This document shows positions 4,831 to 51,647 of a stretch of 64,000 nt of DNA, one piece after another (positions within the stretch are counted from its first letter, which is position 1; the number at the start of each line of letters is the position of its first letter). The position numbers and the translations under genes are program-made. This DNA is from Schmidtea polychroa (lineage: Eukaryota), in assembly GCA_044892525.1 (NCBI GenBank), contig CM097888.1, positions 58,342,001-58,406,000 on the forward strand, written 5' to 3'. Below the pieces are notes generated by a model that worked only from the letters and a program-made list of their open reading frames with translations, searched no databases and was not told the DNA's origin.

Positions 4831-5455
4831 CGATTATGAGCTAAATTAAAATCAATTAGATAAACTTTGGATATTGAAAATTTCACTAGTTATAATAACT
4901 AAATTAGCCAAGTAAAACAACAAAAAGGGAAAATTTCCTTAATTTAGAAATTTGGTAAGATATATTAAATCGAAAATGTGAATGAATTTTAGAGTTTAAT
5001 TAAGATAAAAAATTTTTTTGGATATTTAATATGCTGGATATTAGAAAAAGATTAAAATTTTTGTTAATAACGATTGAAAATGTGAACGAATTTTAGACTT
5101 TAATGGAGTTAATTTTTTTATTTACTAAGCTGGATATATGAAAAGGATTTAAAAAATTTATTTTGGATCTTAAAAGTACCTAGAGTGACCCACGGTAAAC
5201 ATCAAAAGGTCCATTGATATGAGAGTGCGAAAGAAATAATGAATCTATCTTCGACTCCAGGTGTTGAACAAACTTTAATATGGGTAGCTAAAGCGTATCC
5301 TTAAATGACTTGTAGACACAACTTCGCTAATTCCCAGACGTTTGAAAGAAATTTCGTGTATACTTGAGTGAAGTTTAATGATACTCTAGTAAATTAAGAT
5401 CTGACGTTTGTAAAACCAAAACTATTAACGACACCAAAATTATCGTAACTTATTA

Positions 5456-6080
5456 TGTTGAGGATACCTAAATAACAATTTATAAATAAATAAATAAAAT
5501 TACCGGGGGGAAGATCGTCATGACAAACAGAACGATCTATGGGAACTCAGATAAGAAAATGGAAGTGAAAAGAAATGAGAAAGAGGAATGAAACAAAAGA
5601 AATTAAACAAGAAAATAAAAACCAAGGTCTAATTAAGTACTAATTAATTTGTACAAAAAAGAAAAGGAATTTTGAAAATCGGGAAAAAGGAAAACAACAA
5701 TATTCTTATCTCGACAGCTTGCCAGTGATAACGTAATTGCCGGAGAAGGCGGTTGAACAAAAAAGGAAAAAGAGAAACTATCTTGACAGCCGTCAGAGAT
5801 AAATATGGAACAGTCGGGAGAGGCAGGAGAAAGAATTGAAAAAACACTTGATTATCTTGAGTGCCACAATATAAGCGAACTATATAAAGAGAAACTAGCA
5901 GAGACAAAATCAGACAAAATTAGAGACAAAGAGTGACGTGAAATTGAGACGAAACGTGAGAGACAAATTGATGCAAAAACAAGACAAAAAGTGGCGCGAA
6001 ATTGAAACGATTTAAGAGACAATTTGAGAGATAAAATTATTAGAGAAAAATTAGACGTCGAACGAAACGTTATTGGAGAT
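5456..6080 (+). mobile_element. 5' part of an LTR, same family as the solo LTR at 50605-51647 (opposite orientation), truncated on the right
   Basis: Starts TGTTGAGGATACCTAAAT and aligns by eye (roughly 80%) with the reverse complement of ~51020-51647. Confidence 0.75.
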
Positions 6081-6089
6081 ATTGATATC

Positions 6090-6310
6090 TATTGATATCT
6101 AGGGGACGAGACTGAAGCTAACTTGACTCCTTCCCAGAAACCCAAGGTGATTTGCCAAAATGATCTCCCTCATGTGTACCCATGACGACGAGTCATGTTG
6201 GTGCTGTACACATAGGTTGGAACCTATGAGTAGGTGAGCCCCTGTGTTAGTACTACTCACATTATTCGCTGTTCGGGTTCGTGAATTCCGTTGGAAGGAC
6301 TTACATCAAT
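6090..6310 (-). mobile_element. LTR 3'-end fragment (copy D) of the RING-carrying LTR family
   Basis: Contains donor GTAAGT (6304-6299), the GGGGCTCACCTAC motif and the bulged stem-loop (6168-6216), as in copies A, B, C and E. Confidence 0.6.
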
Positions 6311-7169
6311 TTGCTTTCGCCCCTGGTCCAAATGGGTCGCTTATCATAGCTATTCGAATATGTAGACAGAAATCAATAGATCATATACAAAACTGTAACA
6401 AGACGATATCCGACACAAATATATTAAACGCAGTACAAAGACACTCAATTTCCTTTTTCCATTGAACTTGTGAAGCTTGCATATTTATTCGAACTTATCG
6501 AACCATTCGTCGATTTTTGATATTCTCACCGTTAAAACATTCTATTGCACTTAATGTCTTTTAACATTCCAGATAGCTTGTATAATATTACTCAATAAGA
6601 CATAGACAATATTTTAAAACGTTTATTTACACACCTGTAAGTTATTAAACAACTTTTAATTTCACTTATACATTAACATTGAAAACTACAATTTAATATA
6701 ATCAAAAAATCCATAACATATGCGTTTCCATTTACGAAGCGCACCAAACATTTGAATTGTTCCATTACAAGATGACGGGAACTTGAAATAATTAACATTA
6801 AAAATAACTTTTAAAGGAAATAAATCTAAATTTTATTTTAAAATAAATACCTTACTAAATATTTCAAAACTTAATGAATAAGTCGTTAAAAATTAAAAAT
6901 GAATCGTTATTAAAATCAATAAAAGAACAAAATATATATTTTATAAAAATATGTGAAATAGAATAATATCATAATTTATTTAAGAAGGAATTGTAAATTT
7001 CCAAAATTCTTAGAATAGTGATAGTTTCCCTCCATGTTCTAAGATAGTAGTTTACATAATCTTTTATATGCCTTAAATGAAGAGTGCAATTGTCCTTAAA
7101 TTTTTTTTAATTTTAACATGTTTAGCTGTTTGAACATTAAGATATACAAATTCAATCATAAATTTTAAA

Positions 7170-8456
7170 TGTTCCATTTGCTGGGGTGCTACTCGGTTGA
7201 CTCCGATAAAACCTTTCGATTCACGTCTAGAGGATGGTGGTCTCTTACATTAACATCTTTCGCATTTCTGTCAGCCGCAAGCAGTACTCCACATGATCTC
7301 TCACGACATAACACCCATGAATTGCTCCATATTGGTACTATATTATGTCGGCGAGACATCAGAAAACAGGTGAGCCCCTGCCTTAGGACTACTCTTTCCT
7401 GAAGACTCGACTTTTCCTTCTCCGACGGCTGATAGAAGGTCTTACGTCTTAACTACTCCCCATTTGATCTCAACTCGTTATCCTCCTCTGAGTTCGTTGC
7501 CCGGAATTTTCAGATTCAGAGAGTATGGTAATTAAGACAATTTCTTCACGATAGTAGAAAAGAAAACAGTGAACGAAAACGTTTATTGATCAACTATTAC
7601 ACACTTAACCGTCGACACAACAAAAGAAAACATTTGACTACACAATGTTGATCACAAAATTCATGACTATTCAGAGGTTATCCTACTCAAGAGTATCGTT
7701 TCGTTTCTCCCGGTCGGCTTCCGCAAATAAGGCCTCTAAATCGAAAAATTCGGAAGCGTTCTCTTCCCAAGTTGTTCCAGCAGCTGAGATGATCCGACAC
7801 TGCATCCCGGTGTTCGCAGTTGACACGGGAGCAACGCTACTATTCGCCTGCTCAATGGGTGCGACGCGCTTCTGTGCCTTTTCGATAGCTCGCTCCTGCT
7901 TTTTCTTACGCTCTGCTCGAGATAGCTGTCGTCGCTTGGGCTTTAATGATGGATTGGTAGTATAGGATATACTGGGTGTTGGGAAAATTTTGGGTTTCAC
8001 TCTACTGGTGCCCATGAAAACGACTTCATTGGAATTAGGCGAGAGTTCCGCCTCTACACACCCTTGACAAGACTTCTCCGAGGTTCGAGGTCTATTCGGG
8101 GTTTGGTCGTGATGGGTAGGCAACACATTATCTTCCTCGGTTATCGGTATAGTCACGATCTTTCGAGTAATCGAAGCCTGTAGGTACTCTTTGTTTAGAG
8201 CTTCCGACTGCTCCTTTATGAGAAGCCGTTGCGATCTACTTTCAGCGATTAGACTATCGCGGCATTGTTCGCTCCGGAGTAAAAAAAAATCAAATTTTAT
8301 TTTCTGAAATCGTACTGGCCACAAGGCCGAAGGGGAGAATTTCTCACCCTTATGTGTTCTGCAGCTTTTAATTGTCAATTTCTTCTAATGTTGGAGTTAG
8401 AAACTCCCACATTTGTACGTGGTTTACAAGTTTTTCCGGTAAACATCCTTAGGCAT
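7170..8456 (-). mobile_element. LTR-derived segment (copy C) with coiled-coil ORF and structured block; no PBS follows, so 3' or solo LTR
   Basis: Same order as copy A: ORF, donor GTAAGA (7445-7440), AGTAGTCCTAAGGCAGGGGCTCACCT, bulged stem-loop (7304-7350), CA terminus near 7170. Confidence 0.6.
7683..8456 (-). pseudogene. Coiled-coil/basic protein of the LTR family; open 8378-7683, ancestral N-terminus (ATG 8456) broken by in-frame stops
   Basis: LRSEQCRDSLIAESRSQRLLIKEQSEALNKEY aligns with LRLEHCRDSLLEESRCQRLTIKAQSEALHKIY of ORF 12890-13648. The upstream in-frame MPKDVYRKNL*TTYKC resembles MTTSTNTGKNLHPCFSC. Confidence 0.7.
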
Positions 8457-8464
8457 GATAGAGG

Positions 8465-8620
8465 TGTTGGCGTATGTGGGGAAGAAAGGAAATTACGATC
8501 GCTTTCGTTCCGCTCAGACCCTTCCACAGCATACCCGCAATGACTTTACTAATATTCCCTCATGTGAGCCCGTGGAGATGTTACACGTTGGTGATGCCCA
8601 CATGGGTTGGAGTCGGTTAG
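8465..8620 (-). mobile_element. LTR 3'-terminal 155 bp (copy B), near-identical to the end of copy A
   Basis: Matches 12370-12545 with about 5 substitutions plus one indel. Ends ...CCCCACATACGCCAACA with no PBS after it. Confidence 0.8.
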
Positions 8621-9532
8621 TAGGTGAGCCTAGATCTGAGCGTTCTTGGGTCGGCCGTGATTCTCCTGTGCTCTCTTTGTCTTCTCTTTGTTCCTTTTGC
8701 TTGAGCGGGTTCTGACTTGGTTTGTCCTAATCGGTTGTCGGGTTTCTTCGAATTCCTCCTGCGCAGGTTCTGAATTTCTTTAACTGGATTGCTTGTCGAT
8801 CTTATTTGAATTCCTTCTAAGCTGGTTCTGAGTTGGCTTGGTTGGATCCAACAATGAAAAAATGATATCGTGTTGCATTTGCTTACACGAATCAATCATT
8901 CCCTTTTGCAATATTCAAACACAGACACCGTTTAGGGCCTCTGTTATGCTTCTCTTCTTTTCCCCATACAATCTTCGTGGATTATAATTACCCATCAACC
9001 CATATTTTTCGTCTATTTTAAATTATCTATTTGGGGTAGTAACAATTATCTATATGGTCGTATGAATTATCTATAGTTACCATTTATAGTATAAATAGGT
9101 CGTTGTCGGTATCTGCTTATTACCCCCCTTTATTTTCTTAATCCTCTTGCGCTATTTTCGCTATTTTTCTTATTCCTGTCTGTTCTCCCCTCACTCGGTT
9201 CTACTCTGGAACCAAAAAAATTCGTTTTCCCGGTTTAAACCAAAAAAAATTCTGTAGAACTTTGTCTGCTTAACTGGGATCCCCTTTAATTATTTAATTA
9301 TTTTCTTCCTTTTGTTAATCATTTATTCTCGCTTATTCTTTATTTTACTATCTTCTTAATTCATTTTCCTTTCTTGTTCCTTTTCCCCCTTGAAATTATA
9401 TTATCCATTACTACGAGCTCGTTTATTCTTCCCTAAAATCAAATTCCCGTATCTAATTTAAATTCGCTTCCCTTAATTCCGTTTTTCAGCTAGCTTTAAT
9501 ATTCTATCTCACTGTAATTTCTAGGCCTTTAC

Positions 9533-9855
9533 GACTGGCTGGTACTTTTCAACAGCTCAATCTTCATTATCCTGACCGGCTGGACTTCTCACAACTCGGC
9601 CTTAATATCTCTGGACTGACTGGACTCTTCACAACTCAGTCTTAATTTCCCTGACCGACTGGACTCTTCAACAGCTCAGTCTTAATTTCCCCGGACTGGC
9701 TGTACTCTTCAACAGCTCAGTCTTAATTTCCCTGACCGGCTGGACTCTTCAACAGCTCGGCCTTAATATCTCCGGACTGGCTGGACTCTTCACAGCTCAG
9801 TCTTAATTTTCCCTGACCGGCTGGACTTTTCAACAGCTCGGCCTTAATATCCCCT
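9533..9855. repeat. Tandem array of eight ~40-bp units with alternating variants
   Basis: Consensus GACYGGCTGGACTCTTCAACAGCTCRGYCTTAATWTCYCY read directly. Confidence 0.9.
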
Positions 9856-11405
9856 GAACCTGCATGCTTCCGCTTCTTTTTCTCTTTTATTCCAAATTCT
9901 CATTTTCTCTGCTTTTGTTGAGGTCTCGATATTCGGGAACACTCAACTTACTGGTTCTTATATATGTATAAATATATCAAAAGACAAAGTAATTTCTAAA
10001 ACTTTTGTTATAAAGAAAAATTTACCAAATATGAATTAGTCTGCTAGATTATAAAAATCCTTTTAATATCCAACCGAATATGCTTGTATGTACTGTGTGA
10101 ATGTTGTGTTTCTCTTGCTGTGTTGCGTGTAGGCTTTTGAACGTTTTTGTTTGTCTGTTCGAGTTTTAGCACTAATAAGGATTAACCTTTTTAGTATGTT
10201 AACGCGGTTAAAATTTTGGGCGAAGAAAATGAATTTTACCTCGCTATTTATACTATTTTCGTGTCTATGAAATTAAATTGATATATTTTTATAAGTATAC
10301 TTAAGAAAATAACATATTTTATAAATATGGTTAAAGTATTAATTATTGAAAAATTAATTAAAGTGTTAATTATAAAAATTATATATGTTCTAAAATTATT
10401 ATTATTTAATTATTATTTTAAAATATCTAAAATTCTAAAATCATATGTCCACTTATGTTCTTATAAATTGTTATTATTCTTATAGCATATGTTTTGAAAT
10501 CAAGATTATAATTTCAAATACTAATACTAATTAAGATTATTTATTTTGTAATTCTAAATAATAATTAGTCCCCGTAATATATTTTATTTTAATGTACATG
10601 AACATCGAAACATGAAATAATATTCCAAAGATAAATAAGATGCACAGTAATAATAATTGTCATAAAATAATAATCCAAAAATAAATAAGATGCACAGTAA
10701 TAATAATTGTCAAAAGCATAAACTAATGTACATAGTCAATAATCAAATTGCAATGATAATCGTCACTGTTTTGACTTGTCCGGCTTTGGTTATTTGGGTT
10801 CTACGTAGATATTGACTCTGAACTTGTTGCTGCCCGTTCTATAGTAGTGGGTTAGTTCAAATTCTTCAATTCTTCTTCCTCTGTCATCCAACACTTTTAC
10901 TTTTAATTTGTCGACTTAATCTTTACCGCTTGAGAGTGTTTTCCCCTTTCCCCCCTTGCTCAAAACGCAAAACGATCGCATTGATCCATTTCTACATTGG
11001 CATGGTGATCAGTCATACCGCATAAACTTTTCAATATCCGCGATGGTACCTCGCCTCACATTTCTTACTCGGGATGATCGTACCTCCCGAAGGTGGCTCG
11101 GTTTTTCCCCCTTTAACCCTTATGTTGGGACTAGTTCCACTTTATGTAATTAATTAAAAATTTTTTTTTAGACACTTTTTCTTCATGGTGAACAAAAATT
11201 ATAATAAAATTATTAAGATCTATCATAAACGGAATTATAGCTGCACACAATGAGATAAACAAACAAAAATATTTTATTCATTATTCAGTTCACGCTACAT
11301 AACGATATACAATACTATTATTAAAATGTTACCACATCGATAAAATAAAATGTTTCAGTCTAATTGTTAAATCAACCAATTCTTTCACCGAGTGACGATC
11401 GCGCG

Positions 11406-11885
11406 CTAATTGAAATAGACAACGTGTTTTTCTTTTATCTCGCATGCACATAGAGAACAATGAGTCAAGACGGCGACGCATTCGTCGCAATGACTTAGGT
11501 GTCCGCAAGGTAAGATCAGAATTCTGCCGGGTCGGACCTTACAGATATTACAAGTTCTCAATGCTGCTGCTTTCTCTTCGATCAAGATTCGTATTCTCTT
11601 AGACAGAGTTTTCACTTGTTCGCGTACTTTTATATATTCAGTATTTAAGTCAGGATCGTCGAGACGTTGTTGAAACCATTGGTAGTGGATTGACAAGTCA
11701 GTGTCGTTATTTGTTGCTCCCAATATATCTGTTAGAAAGTTTTGTTTAGATATCAGTGGTGCATTGTGACGTTGCTGCTCTAGGAGTTCTATTTGTTTCA
11801 ATTTCTCGGTTAATGTTTCTATTGAGTCGTTTTCTATGTCGACGAACCTGCTTAGTCGCTGTAAATGCTGTCTGGCTTCTGGCAT
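11406..11885 (-). CDS. Coiled-coil plus C-terminal IAP-type C3HC4 RING protein (159 aa, probable E3 ligase), carried by an LTR element
   Basis: CNIC..ILILPCGHLSHCDEC..LTHCSLC..IKEKHVVYFN* has all 8 Zn ligands and a terminal aromatic residue as in IAP RINGs. No BIR domain. Acceptor ttattcag|atATG precedes it. Confidence 0.85.
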   Translation of the reverse strand: MPEARQHLQRLSRFVDIENDSIETLTEKLKQIELLEQQRHNAPLISKQNFLTDILGATNNDTDLSIHYQWFQQRLDDPDLNTEYIKVREQVKTLSKRIRILIEEKAAALRTCNICKVRPGRILILPCGHLSHCDECVAVLTHCSLCACEIKEKHVVYFN

Positions 11886-12344
11886 ATCTGAATAAATGTG
11901 TAGTTATTATTTATTCTTACTGATGTTAAAGATAATATTATTGCGCTTTTGTTTAATATTATTTATCTTTTATTTGTTATTGTTTCCAACTTTTGCATTT
12001 TATTCAATCTTTAAAAATCTCCCCGTCGTACTTTCGATTTTCAATCATTTAATTTTATTGTCATTACTTTCCTTCATTACCCCTTTTATTTTAATAAATT
12101 ACAAATATTTAATTCCCATTTTCTCTTCCAATCATACTCAATCATATTCATTCATACTCATTTAGATTCATTTTTGTTCATATCACACTCTATTTCGGAC
12201 TCTTAACACAAACAGTTCACGTTTTCGTTTCATTGCACCATAATATTAAATCAATTCAGTTCGGTCCCGATTCTATTTTTTATCATAATTAGTTGGATTA
12301 GCACATCATAACACAACAATAAACACTCAAATCAAATCAGATTC

Positions 12345-12362
12345 ATCCCGGCTGAGCCCCCA
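12345..12362 (-). promoter_or_regulatory. Primer-binding site complementary to tRNA-Pro 3' end
   Basis: Minus strand TGGGGGCTCAGCCGGGAT is 16/18 identical to the MLV tRNA-Pro PBS TGGGGGCTCGTCCGGGAT. It lies 7 nt after a CA terminus. Confidence 0.85.
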
Positions 12363-12369
12363 AAAATCA

Positions 12370-13650
12370 TGTTGGCGTATGTGGGGAAGAAATTATTATC
12401 ACAAGACATACCATCGCTTTCGTTCCGCTCAAACCCTTCCCCAGCATACCCGTAACGACTTTACTAATATTCCCTCATGTGAGCCCGTGGAGATGTTACA
12501 CGTTGGTGATGCCCACATGCGTTGGAGTCGGTTAGTAGGTGAGCCCCTGCCTTAGGACTACTATTAACCCACTCTCGGTTCGGGTTCCAAGGTGCCTTAG
12601 AAGGTCTTACCCACACTCTCACACATAACTCGGTCCGACCCAGGTCCAAGGGGACGACCTTTATATATGGGCATACATTCAAGATCACCATTTCATTCAA
12701 ACTGATCACAGAGTTATTCATATCAATAATACCCTCAATGAAATCGAAAATTATATTAAAATAAAGATAGAAGAGATATTTACAACAATTAACACATCAA
12801 CAAAACTTAACAAGCTAAACATGCAGCACCATCAAATTATCGTAAAGTTTATTCACGACTCAGAAGGATCGAGACAGATAGTGAGTCAATCAATTGAACA
12901 CCTCCCCTTCTGCAATCATCTCGTCAATGTCGACGGGTAGCCGGCGATCTTCCAAGAATTTAATGCCATCTGAGGGATCTACCCGGAAGATTTCTTTCGC
13001 GGGGATCGAGTGAGTGGAGATCTCCTTAATCCTTGACTGCGCCACGAACAACGACGCTTCGAGCGTGGCCATAGCATCTCTACGCTTTTGGTTTTTCTCC
13101 GAGCGTGTCGGCCGTTTCCTCTTACGAGGTTGCAAGGTGGTTTTCGCTGGAGAGGTTACGGCAGGTGATATGAGAATTGGGGCCAAGATGGGATCTGATG
13201 GGCCTCCTGCCATTGGTCTATAGCCCGATAGCACAGGGGCGGGAATGGGTGGCAGATGTGGGCCATGCCCCTTACAACTGGATGTTGAAGGCTCTGCTGA
13301 TTGATGGTGGACTGGGAACACATTGGTTCCATCTTGGATTGGGTATTCGCGAACTCGCTTCGCTATTTCAGCATCGGAATAGATTTTGTGAAGGGCTTCG
13401 GATTGGGCCTTTATAGTCAACCGCTGACATCGGCTCTCCTCTAGGAGACTGTCACGGCAGTGCTCCAGACGTAAGATCTTGCTTTTCTCCTCTTTCATTT
13501 GTGGCGGGGAGAACCACGTTCCTTCATAGATGTCGATCCTCTTTTTCAATTCCCCAATGTATAGGTGGAGTTGCGCGATGTCCGCATTTTTATCGGCACA
13601 GGAAAAGCAAGGGTGAAGATTTTTCCCAGTGTTGGTTGATGTGGTCATCT
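12370..13650 (-). mobile_element. 5' LTR (copy A; 5' boundary unresolved) containing a coiled-coil ORF, TATA box, splice donor and structured block
   Basis: Ends in CA immediately before the PBS. Contains TATATAAAG (12667-12659), donor G|GTAAGA (12610) and stem-loop 12476-12519. Confidence 0.7.
12890..13648 (-). CDS. Uncharacterised 252-aa coiled-coil/Pro-rich/basic protein in LTR copy A
   Basis: Uninterrupted ORF with acceptor tctttag|ATG; homologous to the ORFs at 7683-8456 and 19807-20265. Confidence 0.7.
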   Translation of the reverse strand: MTTSTNTGKNLHPCFSCADKNADIAQLHLYIGELKKRIDIYEGTWFSPPQMKEEKSKILRLEHCRDSLLEESRCQRLTIKAQSEALHKIYSDAEIAKRVREYPIQDGTNVFPVHHQSAEPSTSSCKGHGPHLPPIPAPVLSGYRPMAGGPSDPILAPILISPAVTSPAKTTLQPRKRKRPTRSEKNQKRRDAMATLEASLFVAQSRIKEISTHSIPAKEIFRVDPSDGIKFLEDRRLPVDIDEMIAEGEVFN

Positions 13651-14289
13651 AAAGATTAAGATATTTATATTTGCACTTTAAACATTATTGGATCGTCAGT
13701 TACACTTCCACGACGCGAGTTTTATTTACATCCACTCCACATTAAAATAATAAAAATTTCAGCTCTCCCATGCATACCAGTGGCCATCCTGAGACCCATT
13801 CAAGCCTCAATCATTCAAGTCAATTTGTTCAAACGGCTGCAGTTCTATGAAAAGAAAACGGAACCTCGTACATCATTCTATTCGCACATAACAGTCTTAT
13901 GTCTATCTTCGGGGTTGGAAGTTTGCCCGTAAATATATCCTCATCGACTTGTATTATTATTTTATTATCGTTGATGTTATTTATTATTTTCCCCCCATTG
14001 TGTCTTGTATAACGTCCTCCACTTTGTCAAATTTTCAGGGGTTTAGGTTAGCCAAATAATCCAATGCGATAAATGTTCCCTGGCGCTATTCTAAATCAAG
14101 TTAGTAGAACATGAAATTCATAAGTTATTAATTTTCAATGATTATTTAAAATATCAGCTTGCCTATTTTAAACTTTCGCCTTAACTGTCGTCATAGCGAC
14201 GCAGCAAATTGAGCGATAGTGTGTAAACATTTTCTCCTGTCTGTATTACGTATGTTATTTAAAACGTCGTGACACATACCTATGTTAGA

Positions 14290-14690
14290 ATTCATTATGT
14301 GATACCAACTACACTCTTAAAATTTCAACCCCCTTTTCAATGAATGTATTCGATTCACCCCTACACACAACTTCAGTAATTCTCTTACTATGGTTATGTA
14401 ATGGTGATACTATCTTGCTCCTTAGTCTAAATGTGTCGTGGTGTGCTGGGGGTAGCTTATGCAACCTCTCGATGAATTTTCAAGGCGCCCCAAACTCTTG
14501 ATTAGCATTTTTTAAGAAATTTTTCAGTTCTTATGACGTAAGTTGTTTGTGATTCCTAACTGACAAGATTAAATCTATTAATTTCAGATCTGGAAAAGAT
14601 TCGTGTTGACACTCCGATAGCTATAGCCCACTCAGACACTCGGCTACTATCTCTCGCGCTCCATGGACTGGAGTTTTTATCGGATTATTA
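14290..14690 (-). pseudogene. Decayed coding remnant, possibly retroelement gag
   Basis: About 130 codons in one frame with a few stops (..FPDLKLIDLILSVRNHKQLTS*ELKNFLKNANQEFGAP*..); no diagnostic motif. Confidence 0.3.
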
Positions 14691-17600
14691 TTGCCACTTG
14701 TTAGGTTGTAGGTTATTTGTTAGTTTCGTAGTTTTGTTATTTAATAAGAAAATTGATGTACCCGAAAGAGTCTCCGTTAAAACTTCTGGCGGTCTACATC
14801 CTCTGGAGTTCATTTTAATGGCTACCGTAAGAATCTCGTTGGAAGTTTTGCTTTTTTCTCAGAATAGATGCTAGACTTTTCCTATGTGGTTTATCAGTAA
14901 AATCGAAGTAAATCCTAAATCTCTAAAATTGCTGCTACTGAGATGTGATTTTGTGAGAATGTCCCTTAGTTCGGATTACAACTGGAGTGTCCACCTCCTA
15001 CTACTAGCCTCACGGTGATAAATTTCTTGTGTTTGATGCACGAAGAGGTTTGATGATAGCAATTTTCGACCTCACTCGGTGACAGAATTCCCGCAACGTA
15101 TGTCTATGTCTCTCGCTAGATGTCCTCACCCCTCCTGACCAACCCAAGAACGGCATACATTTCTGCCATAGCTCTTAGACCGCCAGGAAGGACGAATCGA
15201 TCTCTTCAACCACAACTAATATTCGTCAAATAGAAGAAAACTAATTATCACAATGAAAAATAAACAAATAAGTGAAAATCAAATCCGGTTAAAGACATTA
15301 TTACTGAATGAAAAATTATTTACCTGGCGACCATTTCATTTGGGTTTCAGGTATGATGTTTTGCCGGCCCTGTGATTGTGCCATCGATCATGATATTAAA
15401 TGAAACTCGCATAAGCTCTATTTACGTTTTCTGTGAATATAATTCTACGACATCGTTGGGATGCATATTCTGGAAATTACTTGAACTATTTGTTGGGCTA
15501 GAACTGATTTCTAGACCCAAACTTCTAATTATGACTGAAAAGTGTAGGTACACAACATGCAAAAAGTATAGCTAAATATTAAAAACTACACCAAATAAAC
15601 AATAGTAATTAAAGGAAAAAACAACAAATAATAAACACAGAAATTAAATAAAATTATACAAAAGCAAGAAGTTATGCAAAATAAAATTCAAAAATAACCA
15701 AATAAACACAGAGTTACAAAAAACAGACTCGAATAACTTAAAGACGGTAAAAGCAGTAAAAAATTCCAGAAAAACCCAGAACATTCCATAAAATGGCGAT
15801 GACCATCACAAAAGCCATCTAGAACAACAAAAGTTAGAAAAAATAAATAAATTAGTATTAAAAATAAAAAATCTTAAAAAGAAATTCATAAAACATCAGT
15901 TAAAATAAAAATAAAATTAAAATTAACATGGAATGTTCTGGAACCGTTCCAAATCCATCATGGACTTCGAATTAACAGAAAGTAATTAAAAAATAAAAAT
16001 TTAAAAATAAAAACAAAAATTATGGCACAAAAATTGCCATTAAAAATAGCAAAATCGCAAAATAGAAAATTCTGGAATAAAAAGAGTTCGAGTTTGTTTT
16101 AATGCATCAATACATACACGTGTACAAAATAGGTATATATACCGACACGTTTCGGTCATAATTAATCACCATTTTATGCCAATTATTGAGAAAAATCTTG
16201 CCGACACAAATAGTAAGGATTGTTGATTTATTTTTTTTTAATTTTTATTGCATTGATGAATTAATTTTTCATTTTTTATTGTATTGAGGATCTATTTTTC
16301 ATTTTTATTGTAGGAATGGTTTATTTAGGAAAAATTAAAGTAATTGCATATTTTGATGTTTCTTACTTTTGATTTTCTCCAGTGATGTACGAATGTTCAA
16401 CGGCGTATGGTATTCCTGCGTCGTTGTTCAGTCCTGCATCCAATTTATTTAAGATTTATAGTACATGCATTATTAATATTATATCGATCTAATTTTATAT
16501 CGTCCTCTTTTTGTTCGGGTCCTTCGGAGGTCGAACTACTTCATGGTCATTCCATGGAGTTAGGTCGAGGAAACCCTCCGTCTGACTCTTTGTATTTATT
16601 AAAGGTCAGCCGTAAATGGTTGACTTAACATATAACATTAAGGTTTGTCGAAGTGGTCACAGTGGGGCCATGAAAGCAATATTCTTCCCGACCTTTTGCT
16701 TAATACACAATTAATTTCAACATTTAAAATCAGGAACAACATCTCTACACTAAGGTATTAATCTGAGTAGAACTCATACCTAAACTTACACAATTCTGCA
16801 CTCACACTCATGTAGCTGGTTGACCCATAAAAGTAATTTCAAGTATAATTTAACAGGCTAATTCAAATATAAATGTAGATATGATAAACTTAACTCTTCA
16901 AAAATTAAGTACAAAATTCAGGGTTTCTACATCGAAAATAGTTAGATAAACGATAAATGTGTAATCATCCCAACTAAAAAACCTCAGCTATGAACAATGT
17001 GAATAAATCTTAACTATGAAATAAACCAAATTTAGGTGTATATGGATCAGAAAATATGAATGTAGTTATGTATAGATGGTATATGTAGTTAACTTTGAAA
17101 AGGTAACCCAGTAATAATGGTAGATAGGCTTTGAAGATGTATCTTATAAAATTTCGGTATGAATTTTGGGACCTAAAAATCTAAATCATAATTAATTATG
17201 AAAGAATCTTTTTTAATCTTAAAACCATAAATTATAAAGATCATAAACGTTTTACATAAATTGTATCGATCTTAAAGTTAGAAATTCTCAAAACATAAAT
17301 TATCAAACTTATAAATGTTATATATAAAGTATATCGATAGTTATAGTTAAATTTTACTTTATAGAATATAAATTAGAAATTGTGGTATATGAATCTTGAT
17401 CACAAATATAACTCATAATTATTAACTATATATGTACATTAATTCTGAAAATTATAAACTATAATTAGTTATATATAAAAGGTTTATGGATGTAAACTAT
17501 AAGTAATTATAAGTTCTAACTATAACGTAGGGAATATAAATAATGACAGGTAAATCGGCATTATAAATATAATCTATAAAGAGGTATCAATACCAGTTAC

Positions 17601-17739
17601 AAATGATTATAATTAATATTTAACTATAAATATATAAAGTATAAATAGCTAGAATAGCTTGCCTTTAAGTACACGACGTTAAAAATTAGAAATAAAAAAT
17701 ATATTTTGTTGAAATTATAAATTATAAATTGAAAATAAT

Positions 17740-17855
17740 TATATTTCTTATTACTATTATAATCGTTATCATTATTATTATTATTATCATCATTATTATT
17801 AATATTATTAGTAGTATGGTTGTCATTATTATTATTATTATTATCATTATTATCA
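17740..17855. repeat. Imperfect (ATT/ATC)n microsatellite
   Basis: Visible trinucleotide run. Confidence 0.85.
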
Positions 17856-19176
17856 AATAAAATTATAAAACAAATTATTGATTTTGGGATTCCCCTATCT
17901 CTAAATTTAGTTTCAGTGGCCCTATCTTCCAATAAAAGTACGGAAAATCACTAAATTCTATTTTTAGTAACACCCCCCCCCGTAAAACGACCTCTATATT
18001 ACTAATGTGGGAATATATATGTATATATCGATAATATAAGTGTGTGTGCGTGTGTGTGTGTGAAGGTACAAGTATACATGCGTGATTCTGGATATATCCC
18101 CATAAATCTACAAAATAGCTGTCAGGATCTCAATGCGGTATCATGACCACAACCCTTTAAGGTAATAGTATGAAGAGAAATAATTTACTGAAACAATTTA
18201 TTAAAGTTATTAAATTTATTTCAAAACCAAATCAAAAGGAGTCTAAATTTATTAATCACTAAAATTCTGACAAAATTATCAAATCAAAGGACGAAGAACT
18301 CAATTGTAAACTACATTTATTAATCCAATCACCCCATATATTTGCATCATGGTTTCTCCGAATCATATTCATGCCAAAGTCCTGTGGGCACAGGTGATGA
18401 AATGTATCCCCTGGGGTGGGAAAGCCTCTGGATGATTCCTTCAGTTTTTTTTTGGTTCAACGACTGGCATATTGCTTTGATGTAATAATGTTGGATAGCC
18501 GACTATACTTCTTGTGTCTCTTCTACGAAATCATTGTCAGGTAATTCCGCCAGGACGATTAGTGGGTGGAACCAACCTTGGGACGACCAAGCCTTCATAC
18601 CTCATTGAATTGTAATAAACTTGATTGCTAAGCAAATCTTTGAATTTTCTCATTGGTGCTGTCAAACAATCCTTGCTCAGACGAGATGTCATGGTAGGTT
18701 GTTGGTCAATGGGGATTGTTGTGGGAGTGCGGCCGACTACTGATATGACTGAAATGTTAATAACAAGTTTATGATATCAATATTTAATATTTTCAATTGT
18801 TTACCTTATCATAGCAAAATTAACCAAAAGTACAAATTGATTCGAAATTCATTATTTATCATTAATTATAATTACATCAACAAAACAACGAAAAATTTAG
18901 ATACTGTTGAATGACTATAACAAAATAAAAAGTACTAAAAATCAAGATTCCATGGTTTTATTTAAATTATTAGTTACCAATTTTTTCTATTAGATAAAAA
19001 ATTTTTTTCTTCTTAATTTAATTGATTAAAAATTATCGCTAAGTTAAATTCAATCTTCGTGTTAAAAAAGCACTTAACTTACTTACAGTAGCTTATTATT
19101 TAGTTGAGATATTTTATCATAACTTCAATTTGTAAGTCATTGGTTAGGAACAGGTTTTAATATTTGTACTACAGAT

Positions 19177-19591
19177 ATGTCCCAATCAGGTGAGTTCAGT
19201 AATGAGGAAAACCACCGACAAATGATCACCCGGCTCCGTACGCGGTATATTTGGTACCGCATCCATGACTGGAATCGTGGATTGGACCTTGACAACTTTG
19301 GTCCGGTTATTAGAAGTGGTCCGGAACCGGATGCCGGAGAACAACGTACTCCGAGAGGCCAGAGATCAAGCGGCCGTTGACGTGGAAATCGCTCAGAGCC
19401 GGCTGAAGAGACTGGAACTGCAACTAAGAGCCAAGCGAGAGGGGGTATCCCTAGAGGAGCTCGAAGATGCCGAGATAACTCCGCGGAAGAGAGAGGAGGC
19501 CCCGCAAACAACCATTGTGATCGTGGACAATTCAGTTAACTTGGACAACTCCTGTTTTTATGAATTAACTATTAGCAGTTGTTGTGTTTGA
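19177..19591 (+). pseudogene. Probable frameshifted coiled-coil ORF upstream in LTR copy E
   Basis: Acceptor tactacag|atATG at 19173-19174. Overlapping frames 19177-19380 and 19265-19591 (EARDQAAVDVEIAQSRLKRLELQLRAKREG) sit in a GC-richer island. Confidence 0.45.
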
Positions 19592-19806
19592 TTCAAATTT
19601 TTTGTGTATATTAGTAAATGTCGAGTGTTTACTCTCAAATAAAGTGTTTTCCTTTTATTTTGTGCATTACTTGATAAATGGAGAAGTATAAAGATACTTC
19701 AGTAGAAATGCTAACATCAACTCATTAATTTTACTATTCATTGGTTTTAACTTTTTGTTTCGTGTAATGGAAACTAATGCTTTTTTCCTTTTTAGTGTAT
19801 AAATTG

Positions 19807-20265
19807 ATGGAAAACCTACGCAAGGATCGTGAGCAGGCCCAGCAGCAAACCGACGAACTCCGAATCCGGGTGGACAAGTTGAAAGGAAAATGTCGGGAGT
19901 TCGAGGGGACCTGGTTTAGTCCCGAAGTAATGAAGAAGAAAACAACCCAGATCCTCCAGCTGCAGGCCCAGGCCGCACGAGACCAGATGGAGATCCGCGC
20001 CCTCAAATTGCAGGTGCGGGCGCTGGAAACCGAGCGAAATGAGCAGTTGGTGCAGGAGGCCGTGGCAAGACAAATACGGCCACTGGCCGTTGAACTCGCA
20101 ACCATATATCCCCCAGCTGCTGAAAGTAAGCCTAAGCGAATGCGGCTTGGACGGAACATTCAGGAGAAACTGAAGAAGGCCAGGTTGGCCGAGTACGAAC
20201 GCCAAACAATTTCAGCGCAAGTGTCTACGACGGGACCGGTTTGCCCCACCAACAAGCCGATCTGA
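19807..20265 (+). CDS. Coiled-coil/basic protein of the LTR family (copy E)
   Basis: EFEGTWFSPEVMKKKTTQIL matches IYEGTWFSPPQMKEEKSKIL of 12890-13648. Acceptor ctttttag at 19794-19795, ATG at 19807. Confidence 0.7.
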   Translation: MENLRKDREQAQQQTDELRIRVDKLKGKCREFEGTWFSPEVMKKKTTQILQLQAQAARDQMEIRALKLQVRALETERNEQLVQEAVARQIRPLAVELATIYPPAAESKPKRMRLGRNIQEKLKKARLAEYERQTISAQVSTTGPVCPTNKPI

Positions 20266-20459
20266 ACTGTTGCGAAATGTTGATCTGTATATATTGGTAG
20301 TATGATTTGTATAATTGTTGTAGCATGAAAATAATAAATATTTTGTAGTATTAAAATAATATCCTAAATATTTTGTGATTGACTGTGAAGTGAGAGTTTG
20401 TGCGAGAGTTTGTGCGAGAGTTTGGGAGAACAATTTTGATAAGGGACCTGAGAAATCGG

Positions 20460-20672
20460 ACACACACCTTCTAACGGCAGTCCGTGAACCCATAGAGTAC
20501 TCGACAATTATAGTGCCTTGATGTGCTCACTTTTTGCGAGTACTCACCCCTTGGTACAGTACCAACGTTGATTACTCAACGGGTACCAAGCGGAAAAATA
20601 ATGTTGTATCCTGGGTTACGCTGGTAACAGCACTAACTAATAAACCTTTAACCATCAGTAACCCACCATACA
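20460..20672 (+). mobile_element. 3' end of a 5' LTR (copy E) with structured block
   Basis: CCTTCTAACGG..GAACCC, GCTCAC, bulged stem-loop 20550-20590, terminus ...CCATACA 4 nt before the PBS. Confidence 0.7.
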
Positions 20673-20676
20673 AATT

Positions 20677-20699
20677 TGGGGGCTCAGCCGGGATTTGAA
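20677..20699 (+). promoter_or_regulatory. tRNA-Pro primer-binding site (23-nt complementarity)
   Basis: TGGGGGCTCAGCCGGGATTTGAA is the reverse complement of TTCAAATCCCGGCTGAGCCCCCA, i.e. T-loop through CCA of a Pro-type tRNA. Confidence 0.9.
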
Positions 20700-21392
20700 A
20701 ATTTAATTGGTGAAAGAACCCGAGAATAGATATAATGGAGAGAGTAAAAGCTGATATAAAGTGATATGCATTCAAGAACGAGCAAATTGTTTTCACAAAC
20801 ACTTAAACTTAGTACATGGATATGTGAATATGATAAAATGTATGTGAAATGTTTAAATGAGTGACGGAAGTTTTGAAGTGTGTCAACATATGAATGTATT
20901 GAAAGTGAGTATGAGAATATTGTACGAATAGCGTAGTAATAGAATGAAATGATGATAAACGAAAATTAAAACGAAAACAAAATATAATAAAAATTGTAAA
21001 TATTAACGATTAATAAAATGTAAATATAAAGAAATAATAAAAATTTAAAAATAGGGGAAAAGGGGGCATAGCACGCTAATAAAAATAAACCAAATGAACA
21101 AAGTAATTAAACTTAATCAGAAAACGTGTAAAATAGGGCGATAACGAATGTGATATAGGTTATATATAATAAGACGATTATAATAAAATCACAAGAACAT
21201 GAAAGAAATTTGCGCGGGATAGAACATTAAACCAGGGGAGACGGGGTTGTTAAGAGTGATAAGTAGAATGTAAAGGTTTATTGAAGCACTAATAAAATAA
21301 GGTATTCAGGATATTAGAGGGAAAATGATAAAGGGGGAAAATGACGCGGAATATTAATAAAAAGGGAACTTTAATTAATAAATCTTACTTAG

Positions 21393-21847
21393 ATGGAATC
21401 AACCGGCTACATTACAAAGAGACTCGAAAAATTCTAAGATTTAACACACAATTCGTTACAACGGCTAAATCGCAAAGCGGACCAGTTGGTGAAAATCCAA
21501 GACGAGATGAGCTTGAATCCAAGACCGCAAGCTGAGGAAATATGTGTAATGATGAGAATAGTAACACCTAATGCAGAATTGACCATTAAAAGAGTCTACC
21601 AAATTCAAAATTTACGATTAGATAATGCCAAATTCAACATCAAATGGCAGGAGATAATGATGAAAATGGAAACGATCGAAGAAGAAATTAAAGGAGTAAT
21701 CGAACATCAAGTTAAAGATTTTAGAAAATGCTTCATATGCAGAACCAATGAAATTTATGTTATTGCGAGAATTGCGCAGAGAAAATTAAACGATGCAACG
21801 TATGCGATACGAACGTTAGAGAGAAAATTGTAATATACCTCCCGTAA
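21393..21847 (+). pseudogene. Coiled-coil plus IAP-type RING pseudogene, full-length homologue of 11406-11885
   Basis: Acceptor cttacttag|ATG; premature TAA at 21435. ..YQIQNLRLDNAKFN..FRKCFIC is followed by a frameshifting deletion of the LPCGH segment, then YCENCAEKIKRCNVCDTNVREKIVIYLP*. Confidence 0.8.
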
Positions 21848-22260
21848 GGAAATGTTGTCAAATAAATTTATTGTGAATGAAGTGATAAAATTATTAAATT
21901 ATATTAAAAATCCATTATAGCAACCGAAAGGTATAAAACATACGATGAACATAGACATATTAAGGACACAAAATACGTTAAATAAATAGAGAAGCATCAC
22001 AGCAATTAGAACTAAAATCAAAATTGAATGCAGGACTGATCATAGTTGTATGAATGAGCTGATCGATAAGATCAGTACGATTTTTATTTCCAATTTTCTT
22101 TACTTCCTGTTTTATTATTTTGGCATAGAGTGATACGATAATAAGGGGATGACAAGTGAATCGTCCTTACGACACTTGCCCGGATGGGGAAATCCTGATC
22201 AGCCTGACGAGAGAATGTAGTAGGATCCATCGCAAATGGTGGGGAGTTTCTGTCGAGTGA

Positions 22261-22280
22261 CTGATACCACTTGTGGGGAA
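22261..22280 (-). mobile_element. Possible LTR terminus (TCCCCACA) plus short PBS-like TGGTATCAG of a different element
   Basis: Minus strand ...TTCCCCACA AG TGGTATCAG; only 9 nt and the cognate tRNA is not established. Confidence 0.35.
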
Positions 22281-23346
22281 TGAACCAAAGCGATTATTAT
22301 ATTTTTTTGTCTGGGAGATTGGGACTAACTAAAAGGGTGAATAAAAATAGAAAAATAAAATAAAAATTGAAAAACGCGCGCTAAATGTTAAAAATTTAAT
22401 CCGAGAGCAGCTGCGGATTTGAAGAAACCGTTTTTGGACTTCAAATCAGATGAGGAGTACTCATTGATATGAATTTTTCCCTAGCAAGTTATGAGGCACC
22501 CGAGTAAAGCGGCTAACCACCGGACTGTAGTGTCCAACAGATTATCAGCCAAAGGACTGATGATGCTGGATCACCCAATACAAATGAATTGGGCGCACTT
22601 ATTTTTGAGTTGCTAGCGGGACTTGATACAAAAACCCGGAAGGGTAGCGAGCGAGAGAGACCCAGTTACCTACACCGAGTATTAAGGAGCCCAGTGAAAC
22701 GGTTGTGAGATGCGAGTCAACCGGTAAAAGGACTCGTATTCAATAGGCAACCAAGATTGGACCAGTTGTGAGGCGGAGGACCGAAAGTCAACTGCATATC
22801 CAATTTCCTTTTATCTTCACTAGTCGGGTGATCTGGTTCATCACTTTTGAGAATCAAGATCGAGGCGATTAGGTATTTCCGTGTTTTTTAAATCCTGATA
22901 GATAGGATTCAACGTTCAGCTCTATAGCATAAAGAGAAAGCTTTGTGGTTATACCAGATGAAATCAAAACCAATGTTTAATGCTTGAGCTATAAGCTGAT
23001 TCATTCAGAGTTTAAACAGAAGCATCTTTAGTGTATGAAGGGTTGAGAATTTCTCCCCTTATGCCTTAACCGTCAATATTATATAATAATAACACTTTGA
23101 TTTTTTTTATCACCTGGATGCATTCATATCGTTTCTATCATTCCCTCGTCACGTATTATCTACTAAAATCGTGCAGTTCATTCTTCTAGGCTCTCTATTC
23201 TCAGTCATGCCCATCCTTGGAATTACTAATGTCTTCTCAGGATTCTTCCGAACTACAATCTCTACAATTTGACCACTCATACCCTTCAGCCTATTCCCTT
23301 TACTTGCGGATTCTACCAACTCATATTCCTGTTCCAACCTTGATCC

Positions 23347-43772: not shown

Positions 43773-45011
43773 GGTAAAAGCCCGATATAGCGTCGGTAAT
43801 TATTTACATCAAAATATACCACAAAAAAGTGACAGTACACCTAAACAAGCTTTATTCACATCAAAATACACTCAAACAGCGCAATTGTATTTCAAGTAAA
43901 CAACATCACGAAAAGTAATTCACGGATAGTTATCCATAAGCGTAATTAAGAAGTTTGGAAACAAGTCTGTGCGTCGAAATTGGTTACGATACGCAAATTC
44001 TTGCAGATATGACGGAAACAACGCGCGACTTGTTCCAAATTGTCTTTTTAACTTCCTCTTCGCCCTCATCCACATGTTCTCGATGTTCTGAGTATGCACT
44101 TCGGAGTCATTAGGATCGACGAAGTTACGTTGGTGCACAACAACGGAATGCTCATATATTCCATGTCTGATTTGATCTATATTTGCATATGCAGCCCATC
44201 CATCAGACATTATATGTGTCCCTGGCAAAATGTGAGCTTCTATACAGGCTTGCAACGTCCCTGGCCGCCTGTCTTGCACTTCCAACAGGAAGCACCGGCC
44301 ACTTTCGCGTTCAATTCCTCTGAAAACCCAGTGGCCATCACGCCGCTGGCCACGGTGATATTTCCTGTGAAAATATTTTGTTTCATCTATTTCCACAATT
44401 ATAGATTGTCCATTGACGTCTATTCCACCAATTTCGGGCGCACTGCGTTCCAGCCATGTTGCACACTCTTCGCGCATGTAGTTGCACCAATCAATTACTA
44501 GGTTTTTGGCAACATCAGCCTCGTGCTGCATCTGCATCTGCGGCATATCATACGACCAGCAATAAACGAGGACAACAATTTGTTGTAATGATAATTGACT
44601 GCGTGCAAAGAAGGATTTGTTTCGCACCGATACACGTAACCACAACGGTCGCATGCCCATCTCCTACCGTCAATTCCCTGCTGGTACCGATTCAATGTGT
44701 ACAGTTGATTGTAAATTCCGCATGGCACAGAGTTGCGAACCAAGCTTCGGCGGGCACACCACTGTAATTCCGAATCAGGTTGTTGTAAGTGTGGTGAAAG
44801 CGTCGACAATCGCCACACCTCATTTAACATATCGTTTTTACTCATTTCATTACGAGGCACTATTATTGTGGATGCTCGTGGTCTTCCGGCCATTTTGCAT
44901 TTAAAATTTAATTTAATAAAAATTAAATCCATATGAAATCCATATGAAGTAGCTATCTTTTGTGGTATATTTTGATGTAAATAATTACCGACGCTATATC
45001 GGGCTTTTTTT
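43773..45011 (-). mobile_element. Merlin (IS1595-like) DNA transposon
   Basis: About 50-bp inverted repeats AAAAGCCCGATATAGCGTCGGTAATTATTTACATCAAAATATACCACAAAA. The left end starts GGT; the right terminal ACC is missing and no TSD was found. Confidence 0.9.
43920..44893 (-). pseudogene. Merlin transposase with one frameshift near 44640
   Basis: N-part MAGRPRAS..DGRRWACDRCG joins C-part SVRNKSFF..VEIDET..IMSDGW..HTQNIENMW (DDE). Confidence 0.9.
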
Positions 45012-50604: not shown

Positions 50605-51647
50605 TGTTGGTTATTGAGTTGGTGATAAAATTTAATGTTGCTCTGACTCCAAGCGTGTCTTTATATAATTCACAAATAACACTTGACAACAGAAATCTTT
50701 ATTGATAATCACAAATAAACTTTCACTTGATACTGACAATAAATTCAACACTCTACTTGGTGACTATACAATGCTTATTACAACACTCGGTGAGGAATAG
50801 CACTTGTGTATAACACCGGAATAAGAGATCACAAATTACTGATTGGTTTCTAAACTGGGATTTTGAGCTGGTTGTTTTCTTTGACTTTCTTTCAAACTTT
50901 ATTCAAATAATCAATAACTTCTTTTCGTTTTATTATTCAACTAATTCTTTTCTTCAACTCTTCTCCAATAATTATTTTCCACAATTACTTCCTTTACAAT
51001 TATTTTGACAATCGTTTGTCCAACAACGTTTCGTCCAACGTCTACTTTTCTCCAATAATTTTATTTCTCAAATCATCAATCAAATCGTATCTCAAATCGT
51101 ATTCCAAATCCTCTCTCAAATCGTCTCTCAAATCGTCTCTAATTTTCCTTCTAAATTTGTCGTCTCTTTTTGTTCTCCCTTTTGTTTCTAATTTCATGTG
51201 CACCAGTTTTCCCTTATATAGTTCGCTTCTCTTGTGGCACTCCAGATAATCGTCTTTTTTCATTTTCCTTCTCCTGCTTCCCCGGACTGTCCCATTTTTA
51301 TCTCTGACAGCTGTCAAGTTGTTTTTCCCTTTTTCCTTTCTTGTTCGACCGCCTTCTCCCATCAATCCTATTATCACCGGCAAGCTGTCGAGATAAGGAT
51401 ATTGTTGTTTTCCTTTTTCCCTGATTTCAAAATTCCTTTTCCTTTTTGTACTAATTAATTAGTACTGACCTTGATTTTTATTTTCCTGTTTGATAACTTT
51501 TATTTCCTTTCTCTTTCTCATTTTTGATTTCTTTTCACTTCCGTTTTCTTTTCTGAGTCTCTATAGATCGTCCCGTTTGTCATGGCGATCTTCCCCCAGG
51601 TAATTTTATTTATTTCTTTATGAATTATTATTTAGGTATCCTCAACA
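50605..51647 (-). mobile_element. Solo LTR, 1043 bp
   Basis: TGTTG...CAACA termini with 4-bp TSD ATCT (50601-50604 and 51648-51651); strongly A-rich on the minus strand. Confidence 0.85.

Follow-up and report, generated by a model that had tools for sequence, protein, structure and literature searches.

A covarying four-helix RNA domain beside the primer binding site of Burro-like giant gypsy elements may dock the primer tRNA

Contacts between a primer tRNA and its template beyond the primer binding site (PBS) are common in retroelements (PMC5371799, PMC11251516, PMC10730233). The elements that we discuss resemble Burro (GYPSM1), which likewise encodes capsid, CCHC, MATH, RT, RNase H, integrase, ankyrin, BIR, and RING domains, has a mononegavirus-type fusion protein between Gag and protease, and has a 5.2-kb LTR with ~28 kb from LTR start to LTR start (PMC6431247). 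The part of that account available to us is about proteins, and LTR RNA structure, the PBS, and the plus-strand primer are absent from it. In the literature that we searched, which left the original Burro genome paper outside, both the structure described below and the primer site of Burro are undescribed.

We analyzed a 64,000-nucleotide window from the planarian Schmidtea polychroa (contig CM097888.1), in which an earlier note had described five copies of a bulged stem-loop near LTR ends. These five loci (A to E) are the 3' ends of LTRs of planarian Burro-like giant gypsy elements, an identity that the earlier note overlooked. Two copies of the E family show, by Pfam matches, the order Gag-MATH-env-PR-RT-RH-IN along with ankyrin, BIR, and RING extras; the Gag of the A family looks alike by eye, and C and D are tied to the group only via their LTR open reading frame (ORF) and the RNA domain. 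The whole LTR of E is 5.2 kb (15491..20668, plus strand, with a TGTTGG start and a CCA end), and the LTR starts are 28.1 kb apart in one copy, as expected for Burro-like elements (giant, with ~5-kb LTRs). Spacers of 7-10 nt are present at both element ends, and we saw no polypurine tract, which points toward non-standard plus-strand priming. A conserved C-tract stands at the expected position of the polypurine tract. No terminal-protein domain was found among the ORFs scanned. In A, the LTR ORF (12890..13648, minus strand) has a coiled-coil-like part, a basic PKR motif, and an acceptor-like AG before its ATG, and it is followed by AATAAA (12848-12853, minus strand). Downstream of the PBS, a RING ORF (11406..11903, minus strand) has an acceptor-like AG directly before its ATG.

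The bulged hairpin, which we will call HP2, has the coordinates, strands, stems, 8-nt bulge, and single 3' G that were first described. In A (12476..12519, minus strand), a lower stem is followed by the 8-nt bulge (12503-12510), which ends in CCAA, an upper hairpin, and the single 3' G. B does not count as an independent copy: its hairpin (8561-8604) is identical to A's, and B is an LTR remnant (8465..8630, minus strand) that has only the 3' half of the neighboring helix HP1 and is fused, at a CTCA microhomology, with A's internal region. GCTCAC..ACCAA occurs five times in the window, versus 0.40 expected by chance. A covariance model run on the window gave exactly these five strong matches (54-103 bits), and the next match had 10.6 bits. 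When A and B are folded as single sequences, the result is unremarkable (z = -1.4 and 0.0); the evidence for structure is comparative.

Across 47 distinct copies, which were collected without using the bulge itself, the bulge reads A (47/47), G (40), T (35), A (39), C (46), C (46), A (47), and A (47). The bulge had been described as an invariant ACCAA; this is true of CCAA, and the base that opens the bulge, an A, is invariant too, but the A before CCAA varies by family, with T or G in its place in whole families. The single 3' G opposite the bulge is invariant (47/47), while the apical loop of HP2 varies among copies.

HP2 is one of four helices (HP0 to HP3) at the LTR 3' end; HP0 and HP3 had been missed. 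In A, on the minus strand, HP0 (12590..12613) has a 3-bp closing stem, an internal loop with donor-like GUAAG, a CC/GG stem, and a UUCUA loop. A GAACCCG linker (12581..12587), which is PAS-like and complementary to nt 50-56 of the primer tRNA's T-arm, leads to HP1 (approximately 12524..12576), a covarying helix with a 1x3 internal loop, a variable apical loop, and AGU/GCU pairs with a conserved U-G. HP3 (approximately 12363..12463) is a terminal hairpin that pairs the LTR end (12370) and the 7-nt spacer; in A it is drawn on a family-level basis, with the spacer pairing seen by eye and the computed fold giving the upper part only. The PBS follows (12345..12362).

The 3' part of the C LTR (7179..7448, minus strand) has HP0 (~7425-7448), HP1 (~7359-7402), HP2 (7304-7350), and HP3, and it ends at 7179 with no PBS after it. 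D (6095..6307, minus strand) has HP0 (~6284-6307), GAACCCG (6274-6280), HP1 (~6221-6268), and HP2 (6168-6216), and is interrupted by another repeat near 6095. The domain of E (20457..20674, plus strand) has HP0 (20457-20484) without GUAAG, GAACCC (20486-20491), HP1 (~20496-20545), HP2 (20550-20590, bulge 20558-20565), and HP3 (~20604-20674), and a tRNA-Pro PBS lies at 20677..20694.

Beyond the window, HP3 starts a short, near-constant linker past HP2, is ~80 to 140 nt long, and stops 0-3 nt before the 18-nt primer site. It pairs the spacer in 21/21 distinct sequences, where the E family shows a base with a compensating change, and its 5' partner begins 33-43 nt past the bulge. The PBS is 104-159 nt downstream of the bulge (28 of the 30 rows listed), which corrects the earlier figure that put the motif ~80-130 nt upstream of the LTR end. 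HP0 carries GUAAG in its internal loop in most families; E-type families have lost it and retain all four helices. Most families whose flank is long enough have a poly(A) hexamer ~200-375 nt upstream. The HP0 apical loop opens with UUCUA, which has a U at the purine position of the tRNA-type T-loop consensus UUCRA (10.1101/2022.12.26.521914). The GAACCC linker is present in 12 of 29 clusters, a set that still includes a few doubtful ones. Three other candidates were dropped: the TGATTTT spacer as an Sm site (the spacer pairs into HP3 and differs in E), CCTTC/GAAGG and ACCC/GGGT as outer closing helices (the 3' partners pair inside HP3), and GGACC as a match to the tRNA variable loop (its position is inconsistent).

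Comparison of 34 diverged copies shows that HP1 and HP2 covary, so the proposal that the stems differ while pairing is kept is borne out. Both sides have changed at 26 of 31 base pairs, and 83.5% of cells are paired, versus 65.1% after shuffling and 34-44% after sliding. Every non-Watson-Crick pair was said to be G-U; this is correct within the stem limits given at the time, but A-C pairs also occur across the 34 copies (129 G-U versus 43 A-C, or 79 versus 41 without two conserved U-G columns). The excess still agrees with the sense strand that was assigned, though it is not absolute. As sequence patterns rather than covariance-model scans, there are 6,173 matches in the genome and 25 in a reversed control. 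The domain is present at 30/30 PBS-anchored and 30/30 donor-anchored loci, some of which are training sequences. Against Rfam, window positions 5000-23000 gave one chance miRNA match and none on the motif, and ten family loci gave none on the motif (T-box, epsilon, and ribozyme families included). Public metagenome and viral contigs contained 41 and 23 pattern matches, all with at most 8 of 12 stem pairs. The model, run on 32 of these 64, gave a weak 16-bit match (L246) with neither HP2 pairing nor a PBS, which we judged to be chance. These results support a cis-acting RNA, apparently undescribed, under selection on the sense strand.

The PBS is 18 nt complementary to the 3' end of the host tRNA-Pro and has 1,054 exact copies. 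Among the tRNA-Pro genes listed as matching it, 100/100 have the anticodon TGG. All readable junctions are tRNA-Pro, and no family with another primer was found; the 13 exceptions are 8 decayed Pro sites and 5 junctions without a PBS. CCAA is exactly complementary to U33-U34-G35-G36 of tRNA-Pro(UGG). After the fact, we found CCAA in this exact anticodon register for 0.7% of 5,000 tRNA shuffles, and CCAA, GCTCA, and GAACCC are jointly complementary for 0.2% of 5,000; GAACCC by itself also matches 9.5% of shuffles. In such a pairing, G37 would be faced by the bulge base that varies. G37 is methylated in tRNA-Pro.

We propose, with a probability of roughly 0.4, that the domain is a primer-tRNA docking module in which CCA and the following A are predicted to pair with anticodon-loop nt 33-36. 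The covariation, the presence of the domain at the anchored loci, the placement of the HP3 5' partner relative to the bulge, the tRNA-Pro PBS, the anticodon register of CCAA, the varying base that would lie opposite G37, the T-box-like layout of a codon plus an unpaired A, and the frequency of contacts beyond the PBS in retroelements count in its favor. The four helices would act at the start of reverse transcription. The domain would lie in U5 and so be present once, in unspliced genomic RNA; HP3 would keep HP2 beside the PBS; and the CCAA bulge would capture or position the tRNA-Pro primer, as the HIV-1 A-rich loop does and in the manner of a T-box specifier, with GAACCC as a possible PAS-like contact in some families. 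NC or RT might then anneal the primer's 3' 18 nt and extend it.

Several observations count against docking. Because the readable junctions are all tRNA-Pro, CCAA cannot be seen to follow the primer, and the PBS does not single out UGG, which is confirmed in at least 996 of the 1,586 PBS-matching genes. Summed over ten conserved blocks, complementarity to the tRNA does not exceed chance (p = 0.16), a Pro codon plus a purine would be expected anyway at 3-5%, and GAACCC is confined to 12 of 29 clusters. CCAAC also complements the LTR start TGTTGG. Four base pairs are a weak contact without a protein. In three of four folds, the bulge CC can shift into pairing with the opposing GG (p = 0.2-0.45), which, together with the invariant 3' G, fits a compact protein-bound motif. 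Pairing of CCA with the UGG of the PBS, which was suggested earlier, could form in one of the four leaders that were folded (p = 0.58); we prefer pairing with the anticodon loop.

In the main rival reading, which is possible if somewhat unlikely, HP1 and HP2 are instead recognized sequence-specifically by Gag/NC or RT and thereby tag unspliced RNA for packaging or RT loading, with the likeness to a codon due to chance. The domain lies 3' of the donor-like GUAAG and inside the LTR, as the earlier note had it, so it would probably be kept only in unspliced RNA, given the splice-like signals; acceptor-like sites precede the accessory ORFs on its other side. The elements encode capsid and CCHC knuckles, the whole bulge junction with its 3' G is kept, as is the U-G pair (30/34 copies), while apical loops vary, and the shape is like that of epsilon, which binds polymerase and packages RNA (PMC3346311). 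But packaging leaves unexplained both the match of the fixed letters to the primer tRNA and the near-constant distance to the PBS, and we saw no conserved palindromic or tetraloop apex in the domain.

We are more doubtful of an extension of the docking proposal: a T-box-like reader of the primer anticodon, displaying a proline codon, combined with a mimic of the tRNA 3' end that replaces the polypurine tract, which would leave both priming steps under the control of a single tRNA identity.

A Rev/Rex-like response element, through which the basic LTR protein would control donor use, poly(A) read-through, or export of unspliced RNA, is improbable. The donor-like GUAAG within HP0, the upstream poly(A) hexamer, and a PKR..R motif retained in the LTR ORFs of A, C, and E would fit. 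But the E-type families keep all four helices without GUAAG, the motif may be a mere nuclear signal, and for the LTR protein we found neither a Pfam nor a PDB match, nor a credible one in Atlas.

We consider it very unlikely that the bulge sets the DNA ends, with CCAAC(A/G) pairing to the LTR start UGUUGG to circularize the RNA, or templating a short epsilon-like primer, and so compensating for the missing polypurine tract. CCAACR does complement the LTR start in both families where the start was seen, and the 7-10 nt spacers would be in keeping; without variation, though, covariation cannot show such pairing, and the lack of a terminal-protein domain among the scanned ORFs and the abundance of exact PBS copies favor ordinary tRNA priming.

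Least probable of all is a self-cleaving ribozyme cut at the CA of GCUCA: the HP1 3' strand, GCUCA(C/A/U), agrees with the strand that is cut in LINE-1 and twister-sister (lantern) cores, where GCUCA also pairs to AG (PMC11620745), and retrozyme LTRs carry ribozymes (PMC4918200), but in place of the GCNAG/GCUCAN loop we found a partner strand (A/U)(G/A)(U/C)AG, which lacks the G-C of GCNAG and has a U facing the G expected to bulge, the usual GCUCAC form corresponds to the A12C variant reported as almost inactive (PMC11620745), no Rfam ribozyme matched, and a cut between U5 and the PBS would presumably split the template.

Covariation seldom reveals the cis-acting RNA structures of gypsy-type elements. 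In this case a single genome holds dozens of diverged LTR families, from which a four-helix leader can be aligned unusually cleanly. Should the bulge read the primer's anticodon, these elements would be a direct system for studying the choice among isoacceptors with the same 3' end, a question raised for tRNA-Pro in HTLV-1 (PMC11251516), and a T-box-like mode of recognition would exist outside bacteria. The model is in any case, whichever ligand binds, a sensitive marker of these abundant, piRNA-controlled elements.

Among known structures, the hepadnavirus epsilon, which is located close to the 5' end of genomic RNA, is likewise built of a lower stem, a 5' bulge, an upper stem, and an apical loop (PMC3346311). 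We rejected membership in that group, since the apical loop here is variable, the RT is gypsy-type, there is a tRNA PBS, and neither a terminal-protein domain nor an Rfam match was seen; epsilon-type priming, which the earlier note had raised, is likewise unsupported, given the 1,054 exact PBS copies. A TAR-like position, in R at the extreme 5' end of the transcript, seems doubtful: HP0 and a donor are found upstream, and downstream we saw no conserved poly(A) hexamer. In the T-box specifier, the 3' end of the loop, beside a helix, presents a codon for the cognate tRNA and then an A that is left unpaired (PMC2879506), and CCA plus a 3' purine is found here too (C46, C46, A47, and A47 of 47 copies). 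Unlike the T-box as described there, the domain has one unpaired G opposite the bulge rather than a two-sided loop with a loop E partner strand, and no antiterminator that we saw; its host is a eukaryotic retroelement, and it has no Rfam T-box match. The HIV-1 PBS segment has a structured U5 upstream of the PBS (PMC11251516, PMC10730233), a loop (the A-rich loop) complementary to the anticodon loop of the primer, and a stretch (PAS) complementary to the 5' T-arm. Here, the upstream loop that complements the primer's anticodon loop is CCAA, facing nt 33-36 of tRNA-Pro(UGG). The differences from HIV-1 are that tRNA-Pro is the primer, that a separate hairpin, 104-159 nt upstream, presents the codon in its 8-nt side bulge, and that the letters of the codon are kept over dozens of diverged LTR families.

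The covariance model recovered exactly five hairpins in the window (54-103 bits), and these are the five that the earlier note had described, in LTR copies A to E. The two fixed words GCTCAC and ACCAA occur together 5 times, versus 0.40 expected. The hairpin of B repeats that of A: B starts at the 3' strand of HP1 (the GCTCAC hairpin) and is joined to A's internal region via CTCA microhomology. Thus, the window has four independent types. Across the genome, the motif pattern had 6,173 matches, some counted twice, versus 25 for the reversed pattern.

Conservation was sampled with two unbiased searches that are blind to the hairpin. At the first 30 of 1,054 exact primer-binding sites (PBS), the motif was present at all 30 (28 exactly and 2 with one change). 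Of 3,317 donor-site matches, the first 30 were scored with the model, and all 30 matched; several of these are training sequences. Among the 47 distinct rows of the donor-anchored set, the letters of the 5' bulge of HP2 (the bulged stem-loop) were A47, G40, T35, A39, C46, C46, A47, and A47, and the unpaired 3' G opposite was present in 47/47. Given these counts, the fixed word of the bulge is CCAA; the invariant ACCAA of the earlier note does not hold, as the preceding A is found in only 39/47.

The alignment comprises 34 copies, roughly one for each cluster; this total includes five added cluster members and leaves out B, one copy without the upper stem, and three singletons. RNAalifold recovered both HP1 and HP2 without being given them; 24 of the 26 pairs were compensated. 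The top mutual-information pairs lie in the same helices. In the named structure, 83.5% of cells were paired, versus 65.1% if shuffled and 34-44% if slid, and 26/31 pairs had changes on both sides (relatedness inflates such counts). By this comparison, HP1 and HP2 covary. The claim that every wobble is G-U survives as an excess (129 G-U to 43 A-C pairs on the sense strand), but A-C pairs do occur.

Two more helices flank these hairpins. The upstream helix, HP0, is present in 132/157 unique instances and comprises a short closing stem, a donor-like GUAAG in an internal loop, a CC/GG stem, and a UUCUA loop. Its comparative support is modest (pairing of 90.6% versus 83.6%, with only 3 compensated pairs). 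The downstream helix, HP3, includes the LTR end and a 7-8 nt spacer between the terminal CA and the PBS (12363-12369 and 20669-20676); the usual spacing is 2-3 nt. HP3 ends 0-3 nt before the PBS in 21/21 distinct sequences (versus 0-14 of 30 in controls). Although its segment ranges in length from 80 to 140 nt, its base starts 33-43 nt downstream of the bulge.

Host tRNA-Pro genes have a 3' end complementary to the PBS. The anticodon was TGG in 100/100 tRNA-Pro genes among the matches listed, and was confirmed in at least 996 of 1,586 matching genes. (These are the genome-wide matches to the gene form; a tandem tRNA-Pro(TGG) array with a 475-bp unit lies at 130.90-130.95 Mb of C1 in G000, loci L342-L353.) No family with another primer tRNA was found among the junctions checked: 13 had a different base after TGG, and these were 8 decayed proline sites and 5 without a PBS. 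The CCAA of the bulge is complementary to anticodon-loop nt 33-36 of tRNA-Pro; GAACCC, between HP0 and HP1, is complementary to the 5' T-arm and is present in 12/29 clusters; and GCUCA repeats the PBS core. Shuffle tests, all chosen after the match was seen, gave mixed evidence: the exact anticodon register arose in 0.7% and all three words (CCAA, GCTCA, and GAACCC) in 0.2%, while overall complementarity of ten conserved blocks had p = 0.16. At the level of sequence, these comparisons establish the domain's structure, position, and complementarity.

We propose, with a probability of about 40%, that the four-helix domain is a primer-docking module. HP3 would bring HP2 beside the PBS, the CCAA bulge would pair with the anticodon loop of the primer tRNA, and the PAS-like GAACCC linker would assist in some families. 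We infer both the docking and its effect on initiation. The strongest rival, somewhat less likely, is a packaging signal bound by Gag or RT: a compact protein site would fit both the invariant junction G and the potential of CC to shift register and pair with the facing GG. Docking and packaging could coexist side by side.

The LTR 3' ends of A, C, D, and E were fixed from solo copies; the LTR of E spans 15491-20668 (plus strand). Just outside one solo LTR is a match to the precursor of mir-753, a planarian miRNA (81 bits, L180:835-896). A 620-bp repeat in inverted orientation (5456-6077 and 51019-51647) interrupts D's LTR with its first copy, and A's internal region contains a 40-41 nt tandem repeat (9542-9873). 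E-family copies encode capsid, CCHC, MATH, a mononegavirus-type fusion protein, protease, RT, RNase H, integrase, ankyrin, and BIR, an arrangement matching that described for Burro elements (PMC6431247). The first ORF of one such copy (L102) ends in an AT-hook-like RGRP. An innexin gene, the mir-753 match, and the domains of the element are indicative of a planarian flatworm.

The LTR-encoded ORFs (19177-20265, 12890-13648, and 7683-8282) have no family match and share an EGTWFSP-type motif and a PKR basic motif. The retention of this basic motif would suit a Rev/Rex-like role for the domain, which we consider improbable because E has lost the donor and retained the helices. A pyrimidine tract and AG lie shortly 5' of the ATG in each of the LTR ORFs and in the RING ORF, and such acceptor-like sites directly 5' of each LTR-ORF ATG could serve cis- or trans-splicing. 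In most families whose flank is long enough, a poly(A) hexamer lies 3' of the LTR ORF, ~200-375 nt 5' of the bulge; no conserved hexamer was found downstream of the bulge across the families compared. The structured domain would then lie within U5 and within the intron of subgenomic RNAs.

At the 3' LTR junctions in the genome (such as L312, L313, and L239), we found no polypurine tract upstream of the LTR. A GGCCCCC tract lies 8-10 nt 5' of the LTR-start TG (414 matches versus 0 for the control). It is similar to the tRNA-Pro 3' end, and it is preceded by a small hairpin that is common to two diverged families. With this spacing, linear DNA would be predicted to carry 8-9 additional bases at each end. 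That the domain itself defines an end is very doubtful. A ribozyme is the least likely, because the partner strand of twister-sister/lantern is absent and the usual form of the motif corresponds to a near-inactive variant.

Elsewhere in the window, a 4,054-bp unit is repeated in tandem about five times (22907-43617, >99% identical), and each copy has a 275-aa ORF that looks sirtuin-like by eye. At 43776-45008 and 45744-47078 lie a 1.2-kb element, which has perfectly inverted ends of 51 bp and a transposase-like ORF, and, next to it, a piggyBac-like ORF (also labeled by eye).

The Rfam search that the earlier note had suggested matched the structure to no known RNA family, and public contigs gave chance matches only. 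We found no description of the structure in the open-access literature searched; the Burro genome paper may mention it. Precedents for the proposed docking are the A-rich loop and PAS of HIV-1 (PMC11251516, PMC10730233), the extra primer contacts of Ty1/Ty3 (PMC5371799), and the codon-plus-A layout of the T-box (PMC2879506). The domain fits no curated RNA family, although its proposed action would be like that of the known retroviral U5 leaders.
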